38,456 bases of DNA from a phage: assembly GCA_030819375.1 (NCBI GenBank), contig GCA_030819375.1_4699.1. One strand, written 5' to 3'. Of the stretch, positions 1,859 to 12,568 are shown piece after piece. Positions within the stretch are counted from its first letter, which is position 1. Every line of letters begins with the position of its first letter. Under the pieces are notes generated by a model. It had not been told where the DNA came from, did not search any database, and saw only the letters and a program-made list of their open reading frames with translations. The position numbers and the translations under genes are program-made.

Positions 1859-2743
1859 ATGACTACTGAAAACATCCTCGTTTCTGTTCGTGAAGCTGCA
1901 ACCGCTGAAATCAAGCAACACTTAGACAATATCGGCACGTCTTACCTCCGTGTCGGCGCTTGTCTGAATGAGTTGCGCGGTGACTTTGAAGGTCAAAAAG
2001 ACTTTTTGGCTTATGTAGAAGCTGAGTTCGGCATCAAGAAAGCACAATGCTACAAGCTGATGAGTGTAGCCCGTGTCTTTGAAGGAGACGAACGCTTTAA
2101 AGGTGTGGCTATGCGTGTAATGTTGGCGCTTGTTCCTTTCGCTGATGAAAATATAATCATGGAGAAGGCCGCAGAACTTGCCGCAGATGGTAAGCTTGAC
2201 ACTAATGCCGTAAACGCCCTGATTGAGCCTAAGAAAGAGCCAAAATCCGAAACGGTACAACCCAAGGCTGAGCCTGTAAAACCGCAGGAGAACGCTACTG
2301 AGGCCGCAGAAACGCAGGAAACGCAAGCGCCGCAGGCAGTACCGCCAATGCGTGAGCCTGACACCGACGAATCTGCACCGTGGGAAGATGAAAGCAAGCC
2401 GGAAGCGCCTAAGGCCGCGCCACTGGATAACACGGCTAACACCGAGAATGCCGCTATGGCTGGCCTGTTGGCACAAATTAAGGCACTGACTGAGCAATTA
2501 CAGGCGGCTAACGATCGCATCGCTGCCCTAACTAGTGCACGTGAAAGCAAGAAGGCAGCCGCACCTATACTTCCTCAGTTCAAATCTAAATGTTTCTATG
2601 CTCGCTTAGGTTTGAGTGCGGAGGAGGCAGAGAAGAAAACAGCAGTAAACAAGGCTCGCCGCGAACTGGTTAAATTGGGGTATGGTGAAGGTCATGAGGC
2701 ATGGGCTTTAATCTCTGAGGCAGTAGAAGAATTAACTAAGTAA
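1859..2743 (+). CDS. Hypothetical early protein (294 aa) with a P/E/A/K/Q-rich low-complexity linker; in the slot T7 uses for gp0.7 but no kinase motifs seen
   Basis: Long ORF in the early region; structured N- and C-terminal parts flank an acidic/proline-rich central region. Confidence 0.7.
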   Translation: MTTENILVSVREAATAEIKQHLDNIGTSYLRVGACLNELRGDFEGQKDFLAYVEAEFGIKKAQCYKLMSVARVFEGDERFKGVAMRVMLALVPFADENIIMEKAAELAADGKLDTNAVNALIEPKKEPKSETVQPKAEPVKPQENATEAAETQETQAPQAVPPMREPDTDESAPWEDESKPEAPKAAPLDNTANTENAAMAGLLAQIKALTEQLQAANDRIAALTSARESKKAAAPILPQFKSKCFYARLGLSAEEAEKKTAVNKARRELVKLGYGEGHEAWALISEAVEELTK

Positions 2744-2800
2744 TCTTATCGGTGGCATCTTCTTAGGTGTCACCTATTAAGGTTTCTTTTAGGAGGACAG

Positions 2801-3176
2801 ATGAGACTTAACATAGAAAGATTTGGTTATAAGGTAGGCTCACATGGAACTATCTTAGGTAAAACAGGAAGACCATTAAGGCAGCATTCTAATGGTGTAG
2901 GTTATTTAGTTGTTCCACTCTTGATAGAAGGCAGAAGGTAGAAATTATGTTAACCACAAAGATGGTAATAAATGGAATAATAAGGCTACTAATCTAGCGT
3001 GGTGTACTAATCAAGAGAATGGCCTACATCATAGGAAAGGTTACATACCAAACATCCAAGAAATAATAGCCAATGCAATAGAGTTACATATGCAAGGTTA
3101 CTCCTATAAAGAGATAGATGCTCGATTAGGGATTTATAAAGGCGCTGCTAGGCGATACATTAATGGCATAAGATGA
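2801..3176 (+). pseudogene. Degraded HNH homing endonuclease (frameshift plus internal deletion)
   Basis: Frame 1 (2801-2941) encodes an N-terminal GY..G...GYLVV motif then stops; the +1 frame (2928-3176) encodes VNHKDGNKWNNKATNLAWCTNQENGLH plus a C-terminal HTH-like tail; the HRLVA..FIPNP segment present in the intact paralog 9556..10035 is missing. Confidence 0.55.
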
Positions 3177-3232
3177 TTATTTGAGAGTATCTAACATTAG
3201 GTACTCAATTAATAACCAATGGAGCCTGATTT

Positions 3233-5860
3233 ATGAAAGATTTATACGAAACCCAACTCATGTTAGAGGAAGAGATGTTCTCTGGTGGTATCCGTCGCTT
3301 TGAAGCGGACCAACAACGCCAGATTGCATCCGGTAATGAATCAGACACGGCATGGAATCGCCGCCTATTGTCTGAGTTAATCGCACCTATGGCTGAAGGT
3401 ATTCAGGCATACAAGGAAGAGTATGAAGGTAAAAGAGGCCGTGCACCGCGTGCATTAGCTTTCATTAACTGCGTAGAAAACGAAGTGGCAGCATATATCA
3501 CGATGAAAATCGTTATGGATATGCTGAACACGGATGTAACCTTGCAGGCTATAGCCATGAATGTAGCTGACCGCATTGAGGACCAAGTACGTTTTAGCAA
3601 GCTGGAAGGTCACGCCGCCAAATACTTTGAGAAAGTTAAGAAGTCACTTAAGGCAAGTAAGACTAAATCATATCGCCATGCGCACAACGTAGCGGTCGTG
3701 GCTGAGAAGTCAGTAGCTGACCGTGACGCTGATTTCTCTCGCTGGGAGGCGTGGCCTAAAGATACCTTGCTACAAATCGGGATGACCTTGCTAGAAATAC
3801 TGGAAAATAGTGTATTCTTCAATGGTCAGCCTGTCTTTCTTCGCACCTTGCGCACTAATGGTGGCAAGCATGGCGTTTACTACTTACAGACTAGCGAACA
3901 CGTGGGTGAATGGATAACTGCATTTAAAGAGCACGTAGCTCAGCTGAGCCCAGCCTATGCGCCTTGCGTGATTCCTCCTCGTCCGTGGGTGTCACCTTTT
4001 AATGGCGGTTTTCACACTGAGAAGGTGGCAAGCCGTATTCGTCTGGTTAAAGGTAACCGCGAGCACGTCCGCAAGCTGACCAAAAAGCAAATGCCAGCGG
4101 TTTACAAGGCTGTTAACGCCTTACAAGCTACTAAGTGGCAGGTTAACAAGGAAGTATTGCAGGTAGTAGAAGATGTTATTCGTCTAGACCTCGGTTATGG
4201 TGTACCTTCCTTTAAGCCGCTCATTGACCGCGAGAACAAACCAGCTAACCCTGTTCCTCTTGAGTTCCAGCACCTGCGAGGCCGTGAACTTAAAGAGATG
4301 CTAACGCCGGAACAATGGCAAGCCTTCATCCACTGGAAAGGTGAATGTACCAAGCTGTATGCCGCTGAAACTAAGCGCGGCAGCAAGTCGGCGGCAACCT
4401 TTCGCATGGTCGGGCAGGCCCGTAAATACAGCCAGTTTGACGCAATATACTTCGTGTATGCACTGGACAGCCGCTCACGCGTTTATGCGCAATCTAGCAC
4501 ACTCTCACCGCAATCAAATGACTTAGGCAAGGCTTTACTACGCTTTACCGAAGGGCAAACCATAAACAGCACTGAGGCGCTTAAGTGGTTTTTGGTGAAC
4601 GGGGCAAATAACTGGGGCTGGGATAAGAAAACTTTTGACGTGCGTACCGCTAACGTGCTGGATGGCGAATTTCAAGACATGTGCCGCGACATTGCAGCCG
4701 ACCCGCTGACCTTCACTCAATGGGTAAATGCTGATTCCCCTTATGGCTTCCTTGCATGGTGCTTTGAATATGCGCGTTATCTGGATGCACTGGACGAAGG
4801 AACGCAAGACCAATTCATGACGCACCTACCCGTCCATCAAGATGGGAGTTGCTCTGGTATCCAGCACTATAGCGCGATGTTACGCGATGAAGTAGGTGCG
4901 AAAGCAGTAAACCTTAAGCCTTCTGACTCCCCTCAAGATATTTATGGCGCGGTTGCGCAGGTTGTTATCCAGAAGAATTACGCCTACATGAATGCAGACG
5001 ATGCAGTGACTTTCACATCCGGAAGCGTCACACTTGCAGGTGCAGAACTGCGTAGCATGGCTAGTGTGTGGGATATGATAGGAATCACTCGCGGCCTGAC
5101 CAAAAAGCCCGTAATGACCCTACCTTATGGCAGCGCACGTCTAACCTGCCGTGAGTCAGTGATTGATTATATCGTTGATTTAGAAGAAAAAGAGGCCCAA
5201 CGAGCTATTGCGGAAGGGCGTACCGCCAATCCTGTACATCCTTTTGATAATGGCCGTAAGGACAGCCTGACACCTGGCGCAGCTTATAACTATATGACAG
5301 CTTTAATCTGGCCTTCTATTTCGGAAGTGGTTAAAGCTCCTATAGTGGCAATGAAAATGATTCGTCAGCTTGCCCGTTTCGCAGCTAAAAGGAATGTAGG
5401 CTTAGAGTATACCTTGCCTACTGGCTTCATCTTGCAACAAAAGATAATGGCGACAGATATGCTCCGCGTATCTACTTGCTTGATGGGAGAAATCAAGATG
5501 AGTCTACAGATTGAAACGGACGTAGTGGATGAAACGGCTATGATGGGCGCTGCTGCTCCTAACTTTGTGCATGGTCATGATGCCAGCCACCTTATCTTAA
5601 CAGTCTGCGACCTTGTTGATAAAGGGATTACATCTATCGCAGTCATTCATGATTCTTTCGGTACTCACGCAGGTCGTACAGCCGATCTACGTGATAGTCT
5701 AAGGGCAGAAATGGTGAAGATGTATCAAGGCCGTAATGCATTGCAAAGCCTGCTAGATGAGCACGAAGAACGCTGGTTAGTTGATACTGGAATCCAAGTG
5801 CCAGAGCAAGGAGAGTTTGACCTTAACGAAATCTTAGTATCTGACTATTGCTTCGCATAA
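3233..5860 (+). CDS. Single-subunit DNA-dependent RNA polymerase (T7 gene 1 family), 875 aa
   Basis: Length and C-terminal ...[13 protein letters not shown] resemble the T7 RNAP terminus (recalled ...NLRDILESDFAFA); conserved palm motifs; matching promoters throughout the window. Confidence 0.97.
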
Positions 5861-6284: not shown

Positions 6285-8273
6285 ATGGCTATTATTCAGA
6301 ATGTACCGTGTCCTGCTTGCCAAAAGAACGGACATGATATTACTGGCAATCATTTAATGATCTTTGACGACGGGGCAGGATACTGTAATCGTGGTCACTT
6401 CCATGATAACGGTAAACCTTATTACCACAAGCCGGAAGGTGGCATCGAGATAACCGAGTTACCTATTACTGGCAATATCAAATATACACCTTCTCAATTC
6501 AAAGAAATGGAGAAGGAAGGGAAGATAAGCGACCCTAAATTACGTGCCATCGCACTAGGTGGTATGCGTATGAAAGACCGTTGGGAGGTCATGAATGAGC
6601 AAGAAAGGGCAGACCAAGAAGCAGAGTGGAAACTTGATGTTGAATGGTTCCTCACGCTTAAGCGTAAGAACCTTGTTTCCCGACACATTCGCGGTGACAT
6701 TTGCGCATTGTATGATGTACGTGTCGGACACGATGAAGAGGGTAGAGTCACGCGGCATTACTATCCACGCTTCGAGCAAGGTGAGCTAGTAGGAGCTAAG
6801 TGTCGCACATTACCTAAAGACTTTAAGTTTGGTCATTTAGGTAAACTCTTTGGTATGCAAGATCTTTTCGGGATGAATACTTTGTCTCACGTGTTAGACA
6901 GGGGAAGACGAAAGGATTGCTTGCTTATTGTGGGTGGGGAACTGGATGCGCTAGCAGCGCAGCAGATGCTCCTTGATTCTGCCAAGGGTACTAAGTGGGA
7001 AGGTCAACCTTACCATGTATGGTCTGTTAACAAAGGGGAGTCTTGCCTTGAAGAGATTGTACAGAACCGTGAACACATCGCCCAATTCAAGAAGATTATT
7101 TGGGGCTTCGATGGGGATGAGGTAGGGCAGAAGCAGAATCAGCAAGCGGCTCGCCTGTTTCCTGGTAAATCCTATATCCTTGAATACCCCTCTGGTTGCA
7201 AAGATGCTAACAAGGCATTGATGGCTGGCAAGGCTAAAGAATTTGTAGATGCATGGTTTAATGCCAAGTCATCTGATGAAGTCTTTGGTAGCCAGATTAA
7301 ATCTATCGCATCTCAAAGGGATAAGCTCAAGGCTGCACGTCCAGAGCAAGGGTTATCATGGCCTTGGCCTAAGCTGAACAAGGTAACGCTAGGTATTCGT
7401 AAGAACCAGCTTATCATTGTAGGTGCAGGCTCTGGTGTAGGTAAGACTGAGTTCCTTCGCGAAGTGGTTAAGCACCTCATTGAAGAACACGGTGAATCTG
7501 TAGGCATCATTTCTACAGAAGACCCAATGGTCAAGGTGTCCCGTGCTTTTATCGGCAAGTGGATTGATAAGCGTATTGAGTTACCGCCAACCAACGATCC
7601 GAAAGAAGACGGATACCGTGAGGTGTTCGACTACACCGAGGAAGAAGCTAACGCTGCCATTGATTATGTGGCTGATACAGGGAAGCTGTTTGTAGCTGAC
7701 CTAGAGGGTGACTATTCTATGGAGAAGGTAGAGCAAACTTGCCTAGAGTTTGAGGCTATGGGCATTTCTAATATCATCATTGATAACTTAACGGGGATTA
7801 AATTAGATGAGCGTGCTTTTGGTGGGAAGGTTGGTGCACTTGATGAATGCGTCAAGCGGATTGGTACTATCAAAGACAGACATGCAGTTACTATATTCCT
7901 TGTATCACACCTTACACGTCCTCCGGCAAACCGTACCCAACACGAAGAAGGTGGCGAGGTTATCCTTTCTGACTTCCGAGGCTCAGGGGCTATCGGATTC
8001 TGGGCATCTTACGCCTTGGGGATTGAGCGTAACACAAGAGCTGAAACGCTTGATGAAAGAACTACCACGTACATCTCATGTGTCAAAGACCGCGACCAAG
8101 GTATCTACACCGGAACCAAGATCATGCTTAAGGGTGACATTCAAACCGGACGTTTGAGAGAACCTCAAGCCCGTACTAGGTCATTTGACACAGGCGAAGC
8201 AAGGCAACAAGAAGTGCCTGATTTACCGGACACTATAGAAGAGACTAACTTCGATGAAGAAAGTGAGTTTTGA
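6285..8273 (+). CDS. DNA primase/helicase (T7 gp4-like), 662 aa
   Basis: N-terminal Cys4 zinc ribbon (CPACQ...CNRGH), Walker A GAGSGVGKT, acidic C-terminus ending ...FDEESEF. Confidence 0.95.
   Translation: MAIIQNVPCPACQKNGHDITGNHLMIFDDGAGYCNRGHFHDNGKPYYHKPEGGIEITELPITGNIKYTPSQFKEMEKEGKISDPKLRAIALGGMRMKDRWEVMNEQERADQEAEWKLDVEWFLTLKRKNLVSRHIRGDICALYDVRVGHDEEGRVTRHYYPRFEQGELVGAKCRTLPKDFKFGHLGKLFGMQDLFGMNTLSHVLDRGRRKDCLLIVGGELDALAAQQMLLDSAKGTKWEGQPYHVWSVNKGESCLEEIVQNREHIAQFKKIIWGFDGDEVGQKQNQQAARLFPGKSYILEYPSGCKDANKALMAGKAKEFVDAWFNAKSSDEVFGSQIKSIASQRDKLKAARPEQGLSWPWPKLNKVTLGIRKNQLIIVGAGSGVGKTEFLREVVKHLIEEHGESVGIISTEDPMVKVSRAFIGKWIDKRIELPPTNDPKEDGYREVFDYTEEEANAAIDYVADTGKLFVADLEGDYSMEKVEQTCLEFEAMGISNIIIDNLTGIKLDERAFGGKVGALDECVKRIGTIKDRHAVTIFLVSHLTRPPANRTQHEEGGEVILSDFRGSGAIGFWASYALGIERNTRAETLDERTTTYISCVKDRDQGIYTGTKIMLKGDIQTGRLREPQARTRSFDTGEARQQEVPDLPDTIEETNFDEESEF
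8221..8243 (+). promoter_or_regulatory. Phage promoter embedded in the 3' end of the primase/helicase gene
   Basis: ATTTACCGGACACTATAGAAGAG; +1 G at 8238; encodes DLPDTIEE in frame. Confidence 0.65.
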
Positions 8274-9043: not shown

Positions 9044-9262
9044 ATGACTAAGGTATTAATTTATATGCGTGGACCTCATAAATGCTATGCAGTTGTAGCA
9101 CCAGATGGTGTTAAGCCCTATAGTACTTCAAAAGGATTGGCATTAATAGGTGCTAGTAGTAGTGCAAGTTTCCAAATGGAACTTTCTGGTCATTTGACTG
9201 AATGGCAATTCCGTGAGGCTTTTAAAGTCATTGGCAGCTTCATGGTGAAATATGCAGAATAA
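9044..9262 (+). CDS. Hypothetical protein (72 aa)
   Basis: AAGGAG RBS; ORF track. Confidence 0.6.
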   Translation: MTKVLIYMRGPHKCYAVVAPDGVKPYSTSKGLALIGASSSASFQMELSGHLTEWQFREAFKVIGSFMVKYAE

Positions 9263-9428
9263 ACATAGTCTTAAAATGTTCGATGGTCATGAAGACCTGC
9301 AAGCCAAGATTACTAACCAAGCCTTCCTGTTCGCACAGGTAACTATGGCTGAGGCCAAGAAGAATAGTCTCACTCGTGAACAGGTTATCAAGGAAAGTGA
9401 AGTGAAACGTAAGATTCGCAGTCGATAA
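9252..9428 (+). CDS. Small hypothetical protein (58 aa), below ORF-track cutoff
   Basis: ATG 9252 overlaps the end of the upstream gene; ORF ends 7 nt before the terminator hairpin; no strong RBS. Confidence 0.3.
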   Translation: MQNKHSLKMFDGHEDLQAKITNQAFLFAQVTMAEAKKNSLTREQVIKESEVKRKIRSR

Positions 9429-9434
9429 GTCAAG

Positions 9435-9466
9435 GGTTGTCTCACGTGTGAGACAGCCTTTTATCA
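9435..9466 (+). terminator. Intrinsic terminator-like hairpin with GTCTCACGTGTGAGAC core (copy 4)
   Basis: Stem ggttgtctca/tgagacagcc (10 bp, one G-U), loop CGTG, followed by TTTTATCAT. Confidence 0.65.
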
Positions 9467-9488: not shown

Positions 9489-9596
9489 ATGAATAACTAC
9501 GACTCTGATTGGGATTTCCAAGATTCAATGCAACCTAAACCAGAAAGGAGGGAGGATGAGTTCGAAACAGATCAAATGTACGAGGATTTTTACTAA
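9489..9596 (+). CDS. Small acidic hypothetical peptide (35 aa) overlapping the HNH start
   Basis: GGAGG RBS 9 nt upstream of ATG 9489; MNNYDSDWDFQDSMQPKPERREDEFETDQMYEDFY. Confidence 0.3.
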   Translation: MNNYDSDWDFQDSMQPKPERREDEFETDQMYEDFY

Positions 9597-10035
9597 CTAC
9601 ATCCTCTACTCTGATGGTCGAGTTCTTAACGAGAAAACAGGGCAATACCTAAGAGGTTACTTAGATAAGGATGGGTATCATATTATGAATATTAAAGGGA
9701 AACACCTTAAAGTTCATAGATTAGTTGCTACTCATTTCATACCTAACCCTAATAATTTACCTGAAGTTAACCATAAAGATCATGACCGTCTAAATAATAA
9801 TGATTGGAATCTAGAGTGGTGTACTCATCAAGATAACAACAAGCATAGTTTGCATTTAGTGATAGCTTCTTGTGCTAAACGCTATGACTTTATATCACCA
9901 CAGGGCGTCCATGTAGAAGTCTATAACCTACGTGAATTTTGTAGGAATAATAACCTACAACAATCTCATATGGTTAAGGTAGCTAAAGGTAAAGTAAGAC
10001 ATCATAAAGGTTGGACTAATTATGCTAGATGTTGA
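9556..10035 (+). CDS. HNH homing endonuclease (159 aa)
   Basis: KVHRLVATHFIPNP...EVNHKDHDRLNNNDWNLEWCTHQDN motif; GGAGGGAGG RBS; sits directly upstream of and overlapping the DNA polymerase start. Confidence 0.85.
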   Translation: MSSKQIKCTRIFTNYILYSDGRVLNEKTGQYLRGYLDKDGYHIMNIKGKHLKVHRLVATHFIPNPNNLPEVNHKDHDRLNNNDWNLEWCTHQDNNKHSLHLVIASCAKRYDFISPQGVHVEVYNLREFCRNNNLQQSHMVKVAKGKVRHHKGWTNYARC

Positions 10036-12568
10036 TTGGAAAGAATTTGGAAAGAATCGCATACTTGTCATGGATGCTGAAAGTAAAGGTCTGCTTGATG
10101 CTATTCGCTATGGTCATCGCGAAGACGTGCACATCATTTGCTGCATGGACTTGCTCACTACCGAGGAGTTCCTATTCTTCGACCCATATGAGATGCGTGA
10201 CCCTGAGGCAAGGGAACGCCTGAAGGAGTGGGAAGGCCATCAAGACGGAACCTTGGTTGATGGTGTTAACTTCCTGAAGCATTGTGAAGCTATTGTGTCA
10301 CAGAACTTCCTAGGATATGACGGTCTTCTCTTTGAGAAAGCATTCCCTGATATTTGGAAAGGCTTTAACTATACCGAGAAGCGCGGTAAGGGCAGACTCC
10401 GTGCTGACCTGTGTCCGGTGCGAGTCATGGATACGCTGGTGATGAGTCGCCTGTTAAACCCCGATAGACGCCTTCCTCCGCAAGCATATGCCAAAGGTAT
10501 GGGTAACGTCGCCCCTCACTCAATTGAGGCGCACGGCATCCGTATAGGTCGCTATAAACCGGAGAACGAGGACTGGTCTAAACTAACTGACCACATGGTT
10601 CACCGTGTACGTGAGGACGTGGCGATTGGTCGTGACTTGTTCCTCTGGCTCTTTAACGGGGAATGGATGGAGCACAAACGCCGTGGCGTGAATAAACGCA
10701 CGGGCCTAGGCATTGAGACAGCCTTCCACATGGAGTCCATTGTGGCGCTGGAGATGAGCCGTCAGGCCGAGCGCGGGTTCCGTCTGGACATCGACAAGGC
10801 TTTGGCCCGATGCGAAGAATTGGACGCTAAGATTGATGAGACAGTCGCAGCGTTCCGCCCTCACATGCCTATGCGTATCAAGTCTAAACCTTTTAAACCG
10901 GAAGAAAAGAATGAAGTATGCCAACGCGCAAATGAGTATGGAGCTAGCAACAATATACCTACTGTCCTTGACCCCTCACACTTTCTTCATGCCGAGAGAC
11001 GAGGAGATCGCAAGACAGTATGGAGTGTCACTACTAAGTCTGGTGATTGGTCGGCTAGTGTCAAGAAAGACTTTCCTCACCTTAGAGGAAACCGTAATGA
11101 CACGCCAAGCATCAAGTGGATTGGCGCTTACTCGCCTGTTACTTTCGAAGAGATTCCCTTGGGTAACAGGGATACAGTTAAGCAAGTGCTCTATGATTAT
11201 GGATGGAAAGGTGCTGAATTTAACGATACCGAGCAAGCGCATCTCGATGAGTACGGAGTGTTACCCAAACCTTGGAGTGGTAAGATAAATGAAAAGTCCC
11301 TTACTTTATGGCAAGAAAGAGCCGCACGTGAAGGTAAAACAGTCCCTGATTGGTGCTTGGGTATCGCTGCATGGTACATACTCGTATCCCGTCGTGGTCA
11401 GATACTCAACCGTGGTGACGTTGAAGCCTTCAACGAGAAGGGAACGTGGCCCTCGCAGGCTGGTGTACGAAAGTGTCGCGGCCTTGTACCTGTAGCATTC
11501 AACAAGGAGCTAGGAATCAATGCGCAGCAATACTACGAGAGGTACGGATGTTGGCCTACGTCTGACAAAGATGACGGAGAGTGGCGTGTTCCAGCTGTTG
11601 CTATTAGCATTGGCACTTCTACGTTCCGTATGCGTCATCGTAACGTGGTCAATATTCCTGCCCGTGGCTTGTATCCTTTACGTGATTTATTCATAGCAGG
11701 GAAAGGCAAGCTAATCCTTGGTTGTGACGGTGCAGGTCTTGAACTGCGTGTCCTGTCTCACTTCATGAATGACCCTGAGTACCAAGAGATTGTACTGCAC
11801 GGTGATATTCATACGCATAACCAGATGAAGGCTGGTCTTCCTAAGCGTGATATGGCGAAGACGTTTATATACGCCTTCCTCTATGGCTCTGGTATAGCCA
11901 ACCTTGCAGCAGTATGTGGTGTTACTGAGGAAGAAATGAAGGAAGTTGTGGCAAGATTCGAGATTGAACTGCCGTCTCTTGCACGTCTTCGTGAGAATGT
12001 TATCGCACAAGGTAACAAGTTTGGCTACCTGCAAGCACCTGATGGGCATTGGGGTCGCATCCGCATGTCTGGTGGTGAACTTAAAGAGCACACGATGCTT
12101 AACGTATTACTCCAGATGACTGGCTCTTTGTGTATGAAATATGCATTAGTCAAGGCATTTGCAGTAATGCGCAAGGAAGGTGTAGCCTTGGACGCTATGG
12201 GAAATCCTTGTGGTGTGGCTAACGTGCATGATGAAATCCAGATGGAAGTTCCTGAAGAGGAGGTCTTGTATCTTAACTACGACCTACCTTTCACCTTAGA
12301 TGGGTTCGAAACAGAGAAGGCTGCCGTGCAAGCAGTGTTCGATGCAGAGGAGAAACGTGTTCATGTGGATTCTGAAGGACGTATGTGGTCTGCTGCAAAC
12401 CTCGTTAGTGTTGATGCTGATGCTGGTGTATTGCATTGCCAGCGCCGTTATCACCGTGCAGGTCATATCATTGCCGACGCCATGACTTGGGCAGGGCAGT
12501 ATCTGAAGATGCGTTGCCCGATGGCAGGCGAATATAAGATTGGCGCAAGTTGGAAGGAAACACACTGA
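10022..12568 (+). CDS. DNA polymerase, family A (T7 gp5-like), 848 aa
   Basis: Exo I motif ILVMDAE, motif B KTFIYAFLYGSG, motif C VHDEIQ; size close to what I recall for SP6-type polymerases. Confidence 0.95.
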   Translation: MLDVDWKEFGKNRILVMDAESKGLLDAIRYGHREDVHIICCMDLLTTEEFLFFDPYEMRDPEARERLKEWEGHQDGTLVDGVNFLKHCEAIVSQNFLGYDGLLFEKAFPDIWKGFNYTEKRGKGRLRADLCPVRVMDTLVMSRLLNPDRRLPPQAYAKGMGNVAPHSIEAHGIRIGRYKPENEDWSKLTDHMVHRVREDVAIGRDLFLWLFNGEWMEHKRRGVNKRTGLGIETAFHMESIVALEMSRQAERGFRLDIDKALARCEELDAKIDETVAAFRPHMPMRIKSKPFKPEEKNEVCQRANEYGASNNIPTVLDPSHFLHAERRGDRKTVWSVTTKSGDWSASVKKDFPHLRGNRNDTPSIKWIGAYSPVTFEEIPLGNRDTVKQVLYDYGWKGAEFNDTEQAHLDEYGVLPKPWSGKINEKSLTLWQERAAREGKTVPDWCLGIAAWYILVSRRGQILNRGDVEAFNEKGTWPSQAGVRKCRGLVPVAFNKELGINAQQYYERYGCWPTSDKDDGEWRVPAVAISIGTSTFRMRHRNVVNIPARGLYPLRDLFIAGKGKLILGCDGAGLELRVLSHFMNDPEYQEIVLHGDIHTHNQMKAGLPKRDMAKTFIYAFLYGSGIANLAAVCGVTEEEMKEVVARFEIELPSLARLRENVIAQGNKFGYLQAPDGHWGRIRMSGGELKEHTMLNVLLQMTGSLCMKYALVKAFAVMRKEGVALDAMGNPCGVANVHDEIQMEVPEEEVLYLNYDLPFTLDGFETEKAAVQAVFDAEEKRVHVDSEGRMWSAANLVSVDADAGVLHCQRRYHRAGHIIADAMTWAGQYLKMRCPMAGEYKIGASWKETH

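Follow-up and report, generated by a model that had tools for sequence, protein, structure and literature searches.

The stretch of phage DNA analyzed here (38,456 nucleotides; hereafter, the window) comes from a Vectrevirus (Autographiviridae, Molineuxvirinae; SP6/K1-5/K1E-like coliphages). A megablast search with positions 2300-3700 matched 78 deposited phages of the Vectrevirus group at 88-93% identity. The gene order is that of K1-5, with an ocr-like gene, small open reading frames (ORFs), a gp6-like gene (294 aa; 1859-2743), the single-subunit phage RNAP gene (875 aa; 3233-5860, plus strand; Pfam RPOL_N and RNA_pol on its orthologues), a primase-helicase gene (6285-8273), and the DNAP gene (10022-12568). 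Logan contig DRR389817_91 (45,064 bp) is byte-identical to the window over the 5.6-kb and 3.9-kb stretches that were compared.

The gp6-like gene is followed by a plus-strand spacer (2744-2800) with a two-tier RNA hairpin (inner tier, 2751-2760/2765-2774; outer tier, 2744-2748/2778-2782) and the ribosome-binding site (RBS) AGGAGG (2791-2796). The fold z-score of this hairpin is -3.1, and the corresponding values in K1-5, SP6, and loci L002 and L007 range from -3.0 to -5.6, with compensatory changes. Downstream of the RBS, an HNH endonuclease gene is spread over two plus-strand reading frames at 2801-3176. Its 5' remnant (2801-2941, frame 1) is a 46-codon ORF, MRLNIERFGYKVGSHGTILGKTGRPLRQHSNGVGYLVVPLLIEGRR, which ends at a TAG stop codon (2939-2941) and corresponds to an I-HmuI-like N-terminal, beta-rich DNA-binding region. 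The 3' remnant (2934-3176, +1 frame), EGRNYVNHKDGNKWNNKATNLAWCTNQENGLHHRKGYIPNIQEIIANAIELHMQGYSYKEIDARLGIYKGAARRYINGIR, ends at a TGA stop codon (3174-3176) and lacks a start codon, as no ATG, GTG, or TTG occurs in this frame until the last 27 codons. It encodes the HNH beta-beta-alpha-Me core (VNHKDGNKWNN..NLAWCTNQEN; 2949-3023, plus strand) and an HTH-like helical C terminus (about 3069-3167, plus strand). The window allele contains no single start-codon ORF that spans the catalytic domain, and reading stops after 46 codons.

The catalytic His and Asn residues of the core are kept (VNHKDGNKWNNKATNLAWCTNQEN in the +1 frame; consensus, (V/D)HKDGNK.NN ... NL.W.T..EN). The first-pass annotation had read an HNH endonuclease across the two frames, and profile searches bear this out: the Pfam family HNH_3 (PF13392) matches the second half with 33.5 bits (E 3e-8), which passes the curated gathering cut-off of 24.8 bits. 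As this match covers only positions 21-45 of the 46 profile positions, the VHRLVA part of the domain (positions 1-20) is missing from the window copy. Matches of the C-terminal part to HTH_23, HTH_28, and Sigma70_r4_2 (E 0.02-0.05) were under their respective cut-offs. The G+C content of the HNH segment is 36%, compared to 45% for the window.

Intact orthologues and the 56-nt deletion

A protein search with the joined reading retrieved P0001 (143 aa) and P0002 (144 aa, 55% identical) as close relatives with intact genes. P0001 is encoded on 13 contigs, several of them about 44 kb long, and every retrieved locus consists of the 294-aa gp6-like gene, P0001, and the 875-aa RNAP gene. P0002 occupies the same slot between the gp6-like and RNAP genes in a more distant relative. 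P0003 and P0004, two additional alleles of 143 aa, fall into the protein cluster of P0001, and an intact HNH gene is present in the slot in loci L002 to L008. The contigs with intact orthologues are metagenomic Vectrevirus contigs of ~44-45 kb. The 5' remnant of the window is identical to P0001 in 46/46 amino acids despite 15 nucleotide differences (~14 of them synonymous, as estimated by NG86), while the 3' remnant matches P0001 residues 62-143 at 86.6% identity (tblastn). Beyond these sequences, a protein-pattern scan of IMG/VR detected no relatives of the RNAP-proximal HNH, the same kind of scan of JGI metagenomes detected only HNH genes of 35-53% identity in unrelated contexts, and tblastn of the reconstructed HNH against 50,697 phage records returned no match that exceeded about 35% identity across most of the protein. 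It is a rare lineage, with ENA/Logan contigs as its only known source.

The intact orthologue matches PHROG HNH families (E 1e-25). Residues 10-92 of P0001 align to residues 13-96 of the HNH nicking endonuclease I-HmuI (PDB 1U3E; E 1.7e-11), and the four-sequence profile A4 matches residues 13-98 of the same structure (E 2.5e-14). P0001 residues 10-46 are those of the 46-aa ORF in the window over that span, and the alignment to 1U3E starts at its residue 13. The VHRLVA segment is present in P0001 to P0004 and in a second, 159-aa HNH ORF of the window but is missing from the window copy at RNAP; the motif is invariant in I-HmuI and in both the RNAP- and the DNAP-proximal families. In I-HmuI, the deleted segment is ..GKTFQVHRLVAIHFCEGYEE, directly before the (V/D)HKDGNK.NN core. 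The deleted helix presumably precedes and packs against the catalytic core in the I-HmuI structure.

An AF2 model of P0001 (three-sequence alignment) had a mean pLDDT of 59.8, with values below 50 for the catalytic core (residues 53-102). Strands at residues 29-52 were modeled with moderate confidence, and three helices at residues 104-142 (block-mean pLDDT, 64-91) are consistent with an HTH-like module. As the core was modeled poorly, the structural role of the deleted helix rests on the alignment to I-HmuI and the known structure of that enzyme. The model was also too poor to serve as the basis for a fold search and was dropped for this purpose in favor of the sequence and profile match to 1U3E. 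No sequence match in the PDB was found for the C-terminal module of the RNAP-proximal family. The intact protein of 143 aa is predicted to have three parts: a beta-rich DNA-binding region, the HNH core, and a C-terminal helical (HTH-like) module.

DNA alignment of the window allele with five intact alleles (alignment A3) revealed one 56-column gap (columns 192-247), and the ORF is otherwise free of indels. The 56 deleted nucleotides encode RRYNELVHRLVAYKWCEKF (codons 45-63). Intact alleles read ..ATAGAAGGCA(GGAGGTAC...AAAAGTTT)GAAGGTAGAAA..., where the block in parentheses is the one deleted in the window, which reads ..ATAGAAGGCAGAAGGTAGAAA... over the junction. GGAGGTA and GAAGGTA flank the deleted block and form an imperfect 7-nt direct repeat (6/7 match) whose copies lie 56 nt apart in the intact alleles, and a single GAAGGTA heptamer survives at the junction (2934-2940, plus strand). 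Slippage or microhomology between these flanking repeats would be the simplest origin of the deletion. Since 56 = 3 x 18 + 2, one event drops RRYNELVHRLVAYKWCEKF, shifts the frame, and makes the TAG codon at 2939-2941. The frameshift and the loss of about 20 residues reported in the first-pass annotation are thus both present, but they are one 56-nt deletion instead of separate lesions. A separate frameshift combined with an in-frame deletion, with GAAGGCA/GAAGGTA as a 7-nt duplication, had also been considered and was ruled out by the intact alleles, which show the single 56-nt deletion. The HNH gene of this genome is therefore dead, as translation ends after 46 residues and the nuclease core lacks a start codon.

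The deleted allele was found in one sample only (run DRR389817), and a culture-specific mutation or an assembly artefact is therefore conceivable. An assembly or sequencing error, or the choice of a minority variant by the assembler, would mean that the phage carries an intact 143-aa gene. Consistent with such an error, the remainder of the ORF looks fully functional, a 32-mer across the deletion junction has no exact match in IMG/VR, and an exact look-up of the 46-aa ORF returned no called gene on record. However, a lesion of 56 nt is implausible as a homopolymer-type or base-calling error, which makes the earlier concern about a sequencing frameshift largely moot, and the short direct repeat at its bounds is as in real slippage. 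Furthermore, the identical RNAP is carried by two recorded contigs, and the locus is a unique region of 430 nt without internal long repeats that would cause an assembler to skip 56 nt. We therefore regard an artefact as improbable.

The broken gene might instead still yield a functional product, either by a +1 frameshift at AGG-TAG (2936-2941) that would produce a 122-aa mini-HNH or by the 46-aa DNA-binding fragment acting alone, e.g., by occupying the target. AGG is a rare Arg codon, and a +1 shift at AGG-TAG would produce GGT AGA AAT .., i.e., GRNYVNHKDG, which is exactly the downstream frame; the 46-aa part is 100% conserved in protein sequence, and the strong RBS AGGAGG is kept. In contrast, intact orthologues are all single ORFs with the 19 residues, including the invariant VHRLVA helix. 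The overlap configuration was made by the deletion itself and is no conserved feature: as the junction occurs in no other genome, there is no conserved slippery or stimulatory element. Conservation of the 46 residues follows from the recency of the deletion. A product of this kind is very unlikely.

Substitution patterns agree with a recent loss. Between the window and L002, the HNH gene differs with a dS of ~0.62 and an omega of 0.015 in its N-terminal part and 0.115 in its C-terminal part (Nei-Gojobori), while omega in the flanking genes is 0.08 (gp6) and 0.018 (RNAP). When the window was compared to three 143-aa alleles with P0002 as the outgroup, two private amino acid changes were counted in the window, E85A (in the invariant NLEW) and L130I, and two to six in the intact alleles. 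Purifying selection thus acted on the HNH gene during practically the whole of its divergence. As this selection was strong and only two substitutions are private to the window, the inactivation is recent; neither multiple lesions, nor omega values moving toward 1, nor an excess of private substitutions, as in an old pseudogene, was found. With one lesion, an omega of 0.02-0.12 at a dS of about 0.6, and two lineage-specific substitutions, the description of the gene as "decayed" in the first-pass annotation was overstated.

The cassette and the recoded starts of RNAP and DNAP

All 78 deposited relatives (K1-5, K1E, and others) lack the insert and have a 63-nt spacer between gp6 and RNAP. The spacer upstream of the HNH gene is shared with HNH-less relatives through ..AAGGTTTCTTT and is divergent thereafter, which places the left edge of the cassette at or just past the RBS (about 2796). 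Downstream of the HNH gene, HNH-bearing alleles carry a spacer of their own (3177-3232, plus strand) with a hairpin (3185-3193/3198-3206) and a new RBS for RNAP, GGAG (3221-3224). The fold z-score of this hairpin is -2.0, and an equivalent hairpin is present in the P0002-type cassette.

The right end of the cassette is formed by the first ~19 codons of RNAP (3233-3289, plus strand), which are recoded in the window (19 residues, letters not shown) relative to the canonical MQDLHAIQLQLEEEMFNGG. The canonical start, MQ(D/G)L(H/Y)AIQLQLEEEMFNGG, is found with very similar DNA in 6/6 HNH-less Vectrevirus genomes examined and in SP6, which belongs to another genus. In contrast, the RNAP start is recoded in all HNH-bearing alleles, which represent three cassette types, a perfect association with the presence of the HNH gene. 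The window and the P0001 type have the 19-residue version, while the P0002 type has one of 20 residues (letters likewise not shown). Over nucleotides 1-60 of RNAP, the window has 5 mismatches to the HNH-positive locus L002 and 16-22 to six HNH-less Vectrevirus relatives. Over nucleotides 60-480, analyzed in 60-nt bins, it has 0-4 mismatches to K1-5 and T205P5 (mostly 0-1) and 6-9 to L002. This sharp switch at about 3290 places the cassette in a K1-5-like backbone, with the crossover at this point. Comparison with insert-less relatives, as suggested in the first-pass annotation for defining the homing site, thus yielded edges at about 2796 (RBS) and about 3290 (inside RNAP).

The recoded patch was not found in IMG/VR, where the canonical start occurs in 9 contigs. 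Its best match among deposited phages is 76.5%, so no donor can be named for the recoded RNAP start, and the idea that it was copied from the RNAP of a known phage was rejected for the same reason. A promoter and terminator scan of 2500-3400 detected nothing beyond the shuffled expectation. Rfam searches of the window at gathering thresholds gave no matches, and those of 2600-3400 at E<=1 gave only noise. An intron-encoded endonuclease was also considered and discarded, as the gene has an intergenic position and an RBS of its own and Rfam detected no group I intron.

At DNAP lies a second HNH endonuclease gene (159 aa; 9556-10035, plus strand), which is free-standing and intact. As described in the first-pass annotation, it overlaps the DNAP start (10022), here by 14 nt. 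The ORF matches HNH_3 at positions 2-45, gives a weak I-HmuI NUMOD-like match, and aligns over nearly its full length to 1U3E residues 12-167 (E 1.9e-15). Of 79 deposited relatives, 6 carry the gene at this position (LL11, ULINTec7, LI10P5, T147P9), and in the LL11 and ULINTec7 records it is already labeled as an HNH endonuclease or HNH homing endonuclease. The DNAP-proximal HNH is hence not new.

The adjoining DNAP gene shows the same kind of recoding. Its first ~120 nt (10022-10141, plus strand) encode MLDVDWKEFGKNRILVMDAES instead of MK(T/S)IDWKKEAEGRILVMDAEA, and this change is linked to the second HNH. In the first two 60-nt bins of DNAP, the window has 22 and 13 mismatches to HNH-less AAPEc6 and 22 and 12 to HNH-less 6948, compared to 1 and 5 to HNH-positive LL11. 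Mismatches to the HNH-less genomes drop to about 0 by nucleotide 300. The second HNH gene shows the same pattern as the first, with a recoded patch at the start of the adjoining gene.

The two HNH genes of the window had been described as a paralogous pair, but pairwise comparison does not support this relationship. They are 36% identical over 83 aa (33-35% in alignments), and no similarity was found between them at the DNA level. The RNAP-proximal family matches I-HmuI residues 13-98 only, and its C-terminal module is unlike that of the 159-aa HNH. The two genes are independent elements of one superfamily and not recent paralogs or products of a duplication.

Proposed homing at the RNAP start and loss of the nuclease

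Free-standing homing-endonuclease genes spread by intronless homing, in the course of which flanking markers are co-converted (PMC2988022), and their positions cluster near essential genes and at boundaries of recombination (PMC10448857). Defunct homing-endonuclease genes exist as well, e.g., I-TevIII of T4 (PMC2790892). The segment 2801-3176 is very probably a free-standing, I-HmuI-like HNH homing-endonuclease gene that was recently killed by one 56-nt deletion and whose intact form would home at the RNAP start. The first-pass annotation had placed a decayed HNH homing endonuclease upstream of RNAP. An inactivated HNH gene of the homing type does lie directly 5' of RNAP, and its distribution is sporadic, with 0/78 deposited relatives carrying it and intact copies at the same locus elsewhere.

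In a mixed infection, the intact enzyme would cut or nick an HNH-less genome in or near the conserved first ~60 nt of RNAP. Repair off the HNH-positive genome would then copy in the cassette, composed of the HNH gene, its own hairpin and RBS, and the recoded RNAP start, which may represent a cleavage-resistant version of the target. The putative target site is deduced only from the association between the HNH gene and the recoded patch. As free-standing endonucleases can cut hundreds of base pairs away from their own gene (PMC2988022), the true target could lie elsewhere. The window genome keeps this recoded patch and would thus stay immune to intact relatives without bearing the cost of the nuclease.

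Empty, intact, and deleted alleles occur across genomes, and in this sense the locus does offer the snapshot of invasion and decay proposed in the first-pass annotation; the pair of HNH genes within this genome, from which the proposal had been drawn, does not. Homing-endonuclease genes reportedly pass through a cycle of invasion, fixation, and degeneration (Goddard and Burt, 1999). The dS of the HNH gene between the window and L002 equals that of the flanking genes, and this equality may also fit long vertical residence instead of recent invasion.

Alternatively, the HNH family could be domesticated and serve the phage, as a regulator or nuclease acting with RNAP or against competing phages or host DNA, so that the deletion would be a simple gene loss. 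The dS equal to that of the flanking genes and the strong purifying selection are in line with such a role, and phage HNH proteins with non-homing roles exist, such as the terminase-associated HNH of HK97-like phages. However, absence from 78/78 deposited genus members marks the gene as dispensable, its G+C content is atypical, and its architecture is that of I-HmuI-type enzymes with proven homing or nicking activity. The recoded-target patch and the recombination breakpoint at the cassette edge, a pattern that recurs at the DNAP-proximal HNH, likewise argue against domestication, as does the occurrence of a third family member at another slot in other Vectreviruses. There is little chance that this explanation is correct, and a free-standing homing gene remains the preferred reading.

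It is similarly far-fetched that the perfectly conserved, well-translated 46-aa fragment or the 122-aa frameshift product is kept as a nuclease-dead "anti-homing" factor that binds the target site at the RNAP start. If this were true, such a product would join the recoded patch in shielding the genome from co-infecting intact HNHs, or it would modulate RNAP expression.

The element is of an ordinary, well-understood kind and reveals no new mechanism. Its value lies in the availability of a single locus as empty, intact, and freshly inactivated alleles, with the exact inactivating event known, and in the testable prediction that the endonuclease targets the first ~60 nt of RNAP, which are conserved even in SP6. 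Furthermore, the cassettes mark recombination breakpoints and alter the N termini of phage RNAP and DNAP, which is relevant to the engineering and classification of K1-type therapeutic phages. The analysis also points to HNH genes that lack annotation in deposited genomes.

Comparison with known systems

A literature search on HNH and homing endonucleases in Vectrevirus, K1-5, K1E, and SP6 yielded no account of these sites. Among deposited phages, LL11 (YP_009812380.1) and ULINTec7 (UCR91882.1) carry the same gene at the same locus as 9556-10035; the DNA is 95-97% identical, and the proteins fall into the same 90% cluster. A further, unannotated HNH ORF of 143 aa lies between the holin and small-terminase genes of ULINTec4, EC120, 6948, and K1E; no HNH of this type was found in the window. 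It has the same length and three-part architecture as the reconstructed RNAP-proximal HNH, including a QG(W/Y)SY.. helical C terminus, and is ~35% identical to it over the full length. However, it occupies a different slot and is too divergent for a recent transposition.

The closest characterized enzyme is I-HmuI, the intron-encoded HNH nicking endonuclease of Bacillus phage SPO1, which has the beta-rich N terminus, the VHRLVA helix, and the core in common with the intact RNAP-proximal family. The C-terminal helical modules differ, and the window copy is frameshifted and lacks the VHRLVA helix. In contrast to I-HmuI, the HNH genes of the window are free-standing.

With respect to its fate, the RNAP-proximal gene resembles I-TevIII of T4, likewise a truncated, inactive homing-endonuclease gene that is kept at its homing site while relatives have intact versions (PMC2790892). 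In comparison, the damage to the RNAP-proximal HNH is confined to one very recent deletion, and no sign of trans-mobilization by another endonuclease was seen.

With respect to its setting, the RNAP-proximal HNH is similar to the free-standing Seg and Mob endonucleases of T-even phages (PMC2988022). These are likewise intergenic, lie beside a conserved essential gene, and occur sporadically in close relatives, with co-converted or divergent flanks and a presence linked to the variant of the neighboring gene. In the present case, the hosts of the element are Autographiviridae (Molineuxvirinae), the neighbor is the phage RNAP, and homing is inferred from sequence. Moreover, the putative target of the RNAP-proximal HNH lies within about 60 nt of the 3' end of its gene, while that of the T-even type lies hundreds of base pairs off.

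The DNAP-proximal HNH ORF and its insertion slot

The slot upstream of the DNAP gene, where the window carries its intact 159-aa HNH ORF (9556 to 10035), is a variable insertion hot spot. Phage 6948 and its relatives contain no HNH gene there and have two other small ORFs of 35 and 72 aa (887 to 1199 of the 6948 locus, equivalent to window positions ~9489 to 10021), and in AAPEc6 the slot is almost empty. In carriers of the DNAP-proximal HNH, the DNAP gene is recoded over its first ~120 nt (10022 to 10141) compared with HNH-less relatives, and the reading of the upstream 35-aa ORF (phrog_15473; 9489 to 9596) in the window differs from that in AAPEc6. These sequence comparisons suggest that the cassette has divergent flanks on both sides. 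Further upstream, a 58-aa ORF (9252 to 9428) has on its 3' side a strong terminator-like hairpin at 9434 to 9462 (GGTTGTCTCAC-gtg-TGAGACAGCC, then TTTTAT), which is conserved in AAPEc6 and 6948. The exact 159-aa product is on record at NCBI as the TPA protein HDT1154107.1, labelled [Escherichia coli]. The genome of the window's phage thus seems to originate in a sequencing run of E. coli (DRR389817) and not in a phage isolate that was deposited; it is absent from the INPHARED phage collection.

HNH genes at a third slot

An intact 143-aa HNH ORF is located between the holin and small-terminase genes of phage ULINTec4 (MZ997839.1; locus positions 701 to 1132), where it has no annotation in the deposited record. 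The same ORF was found in EC120, 6948 and K1E KY435490. With this site, the genus has a third slot for HNH genes. The window lacks this ORF. The encoded protein shares a three-part architecture with the RNAP-proximal HNH, to which it is ~35% identical.

Hairpins upstream of the RNAP gene

Window positions 3185 to 3224 hold a small hairpin (3185 to 3193/3198 to 3206) that belongs to the RNAP-proximal HNH cassette itself. Next comes AATTAATAACCAATGGAG, which replaces the RBS of the RNAP gene; the cassette thus appears to rebuild the translation signals of RNAP. An equivalent hairpin with other stem bases (GAGGC/GCCTC) is present in cassettes of the type encoding the 144-aa HNH orthologue.

Downstream of the gp6-like gene and ahead of the RNAP region is a second, two-tier RNA hairpin (2744 to 2782; inner stem, 2751 to 2760/2765 to 2774). 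Compensatory base changes accompany a structure that is maintained between SP6 and K1-5: the bases are GGTGGCA..TGTCACC in the window versus GGTGGTA..TACCACC in a relative with an intact RNAP-proximal HNH (L002), and the sequences differ again in SP6 and in a further HNH-bearing relative (L007). Fold z-scores ranged from -3 to -5.6, and Rfam returned no matches for this hairpin. It may serve as an attenuator or as an RNase III-type processing site resembling T7 R1, which is such a site upstream of gene 1.
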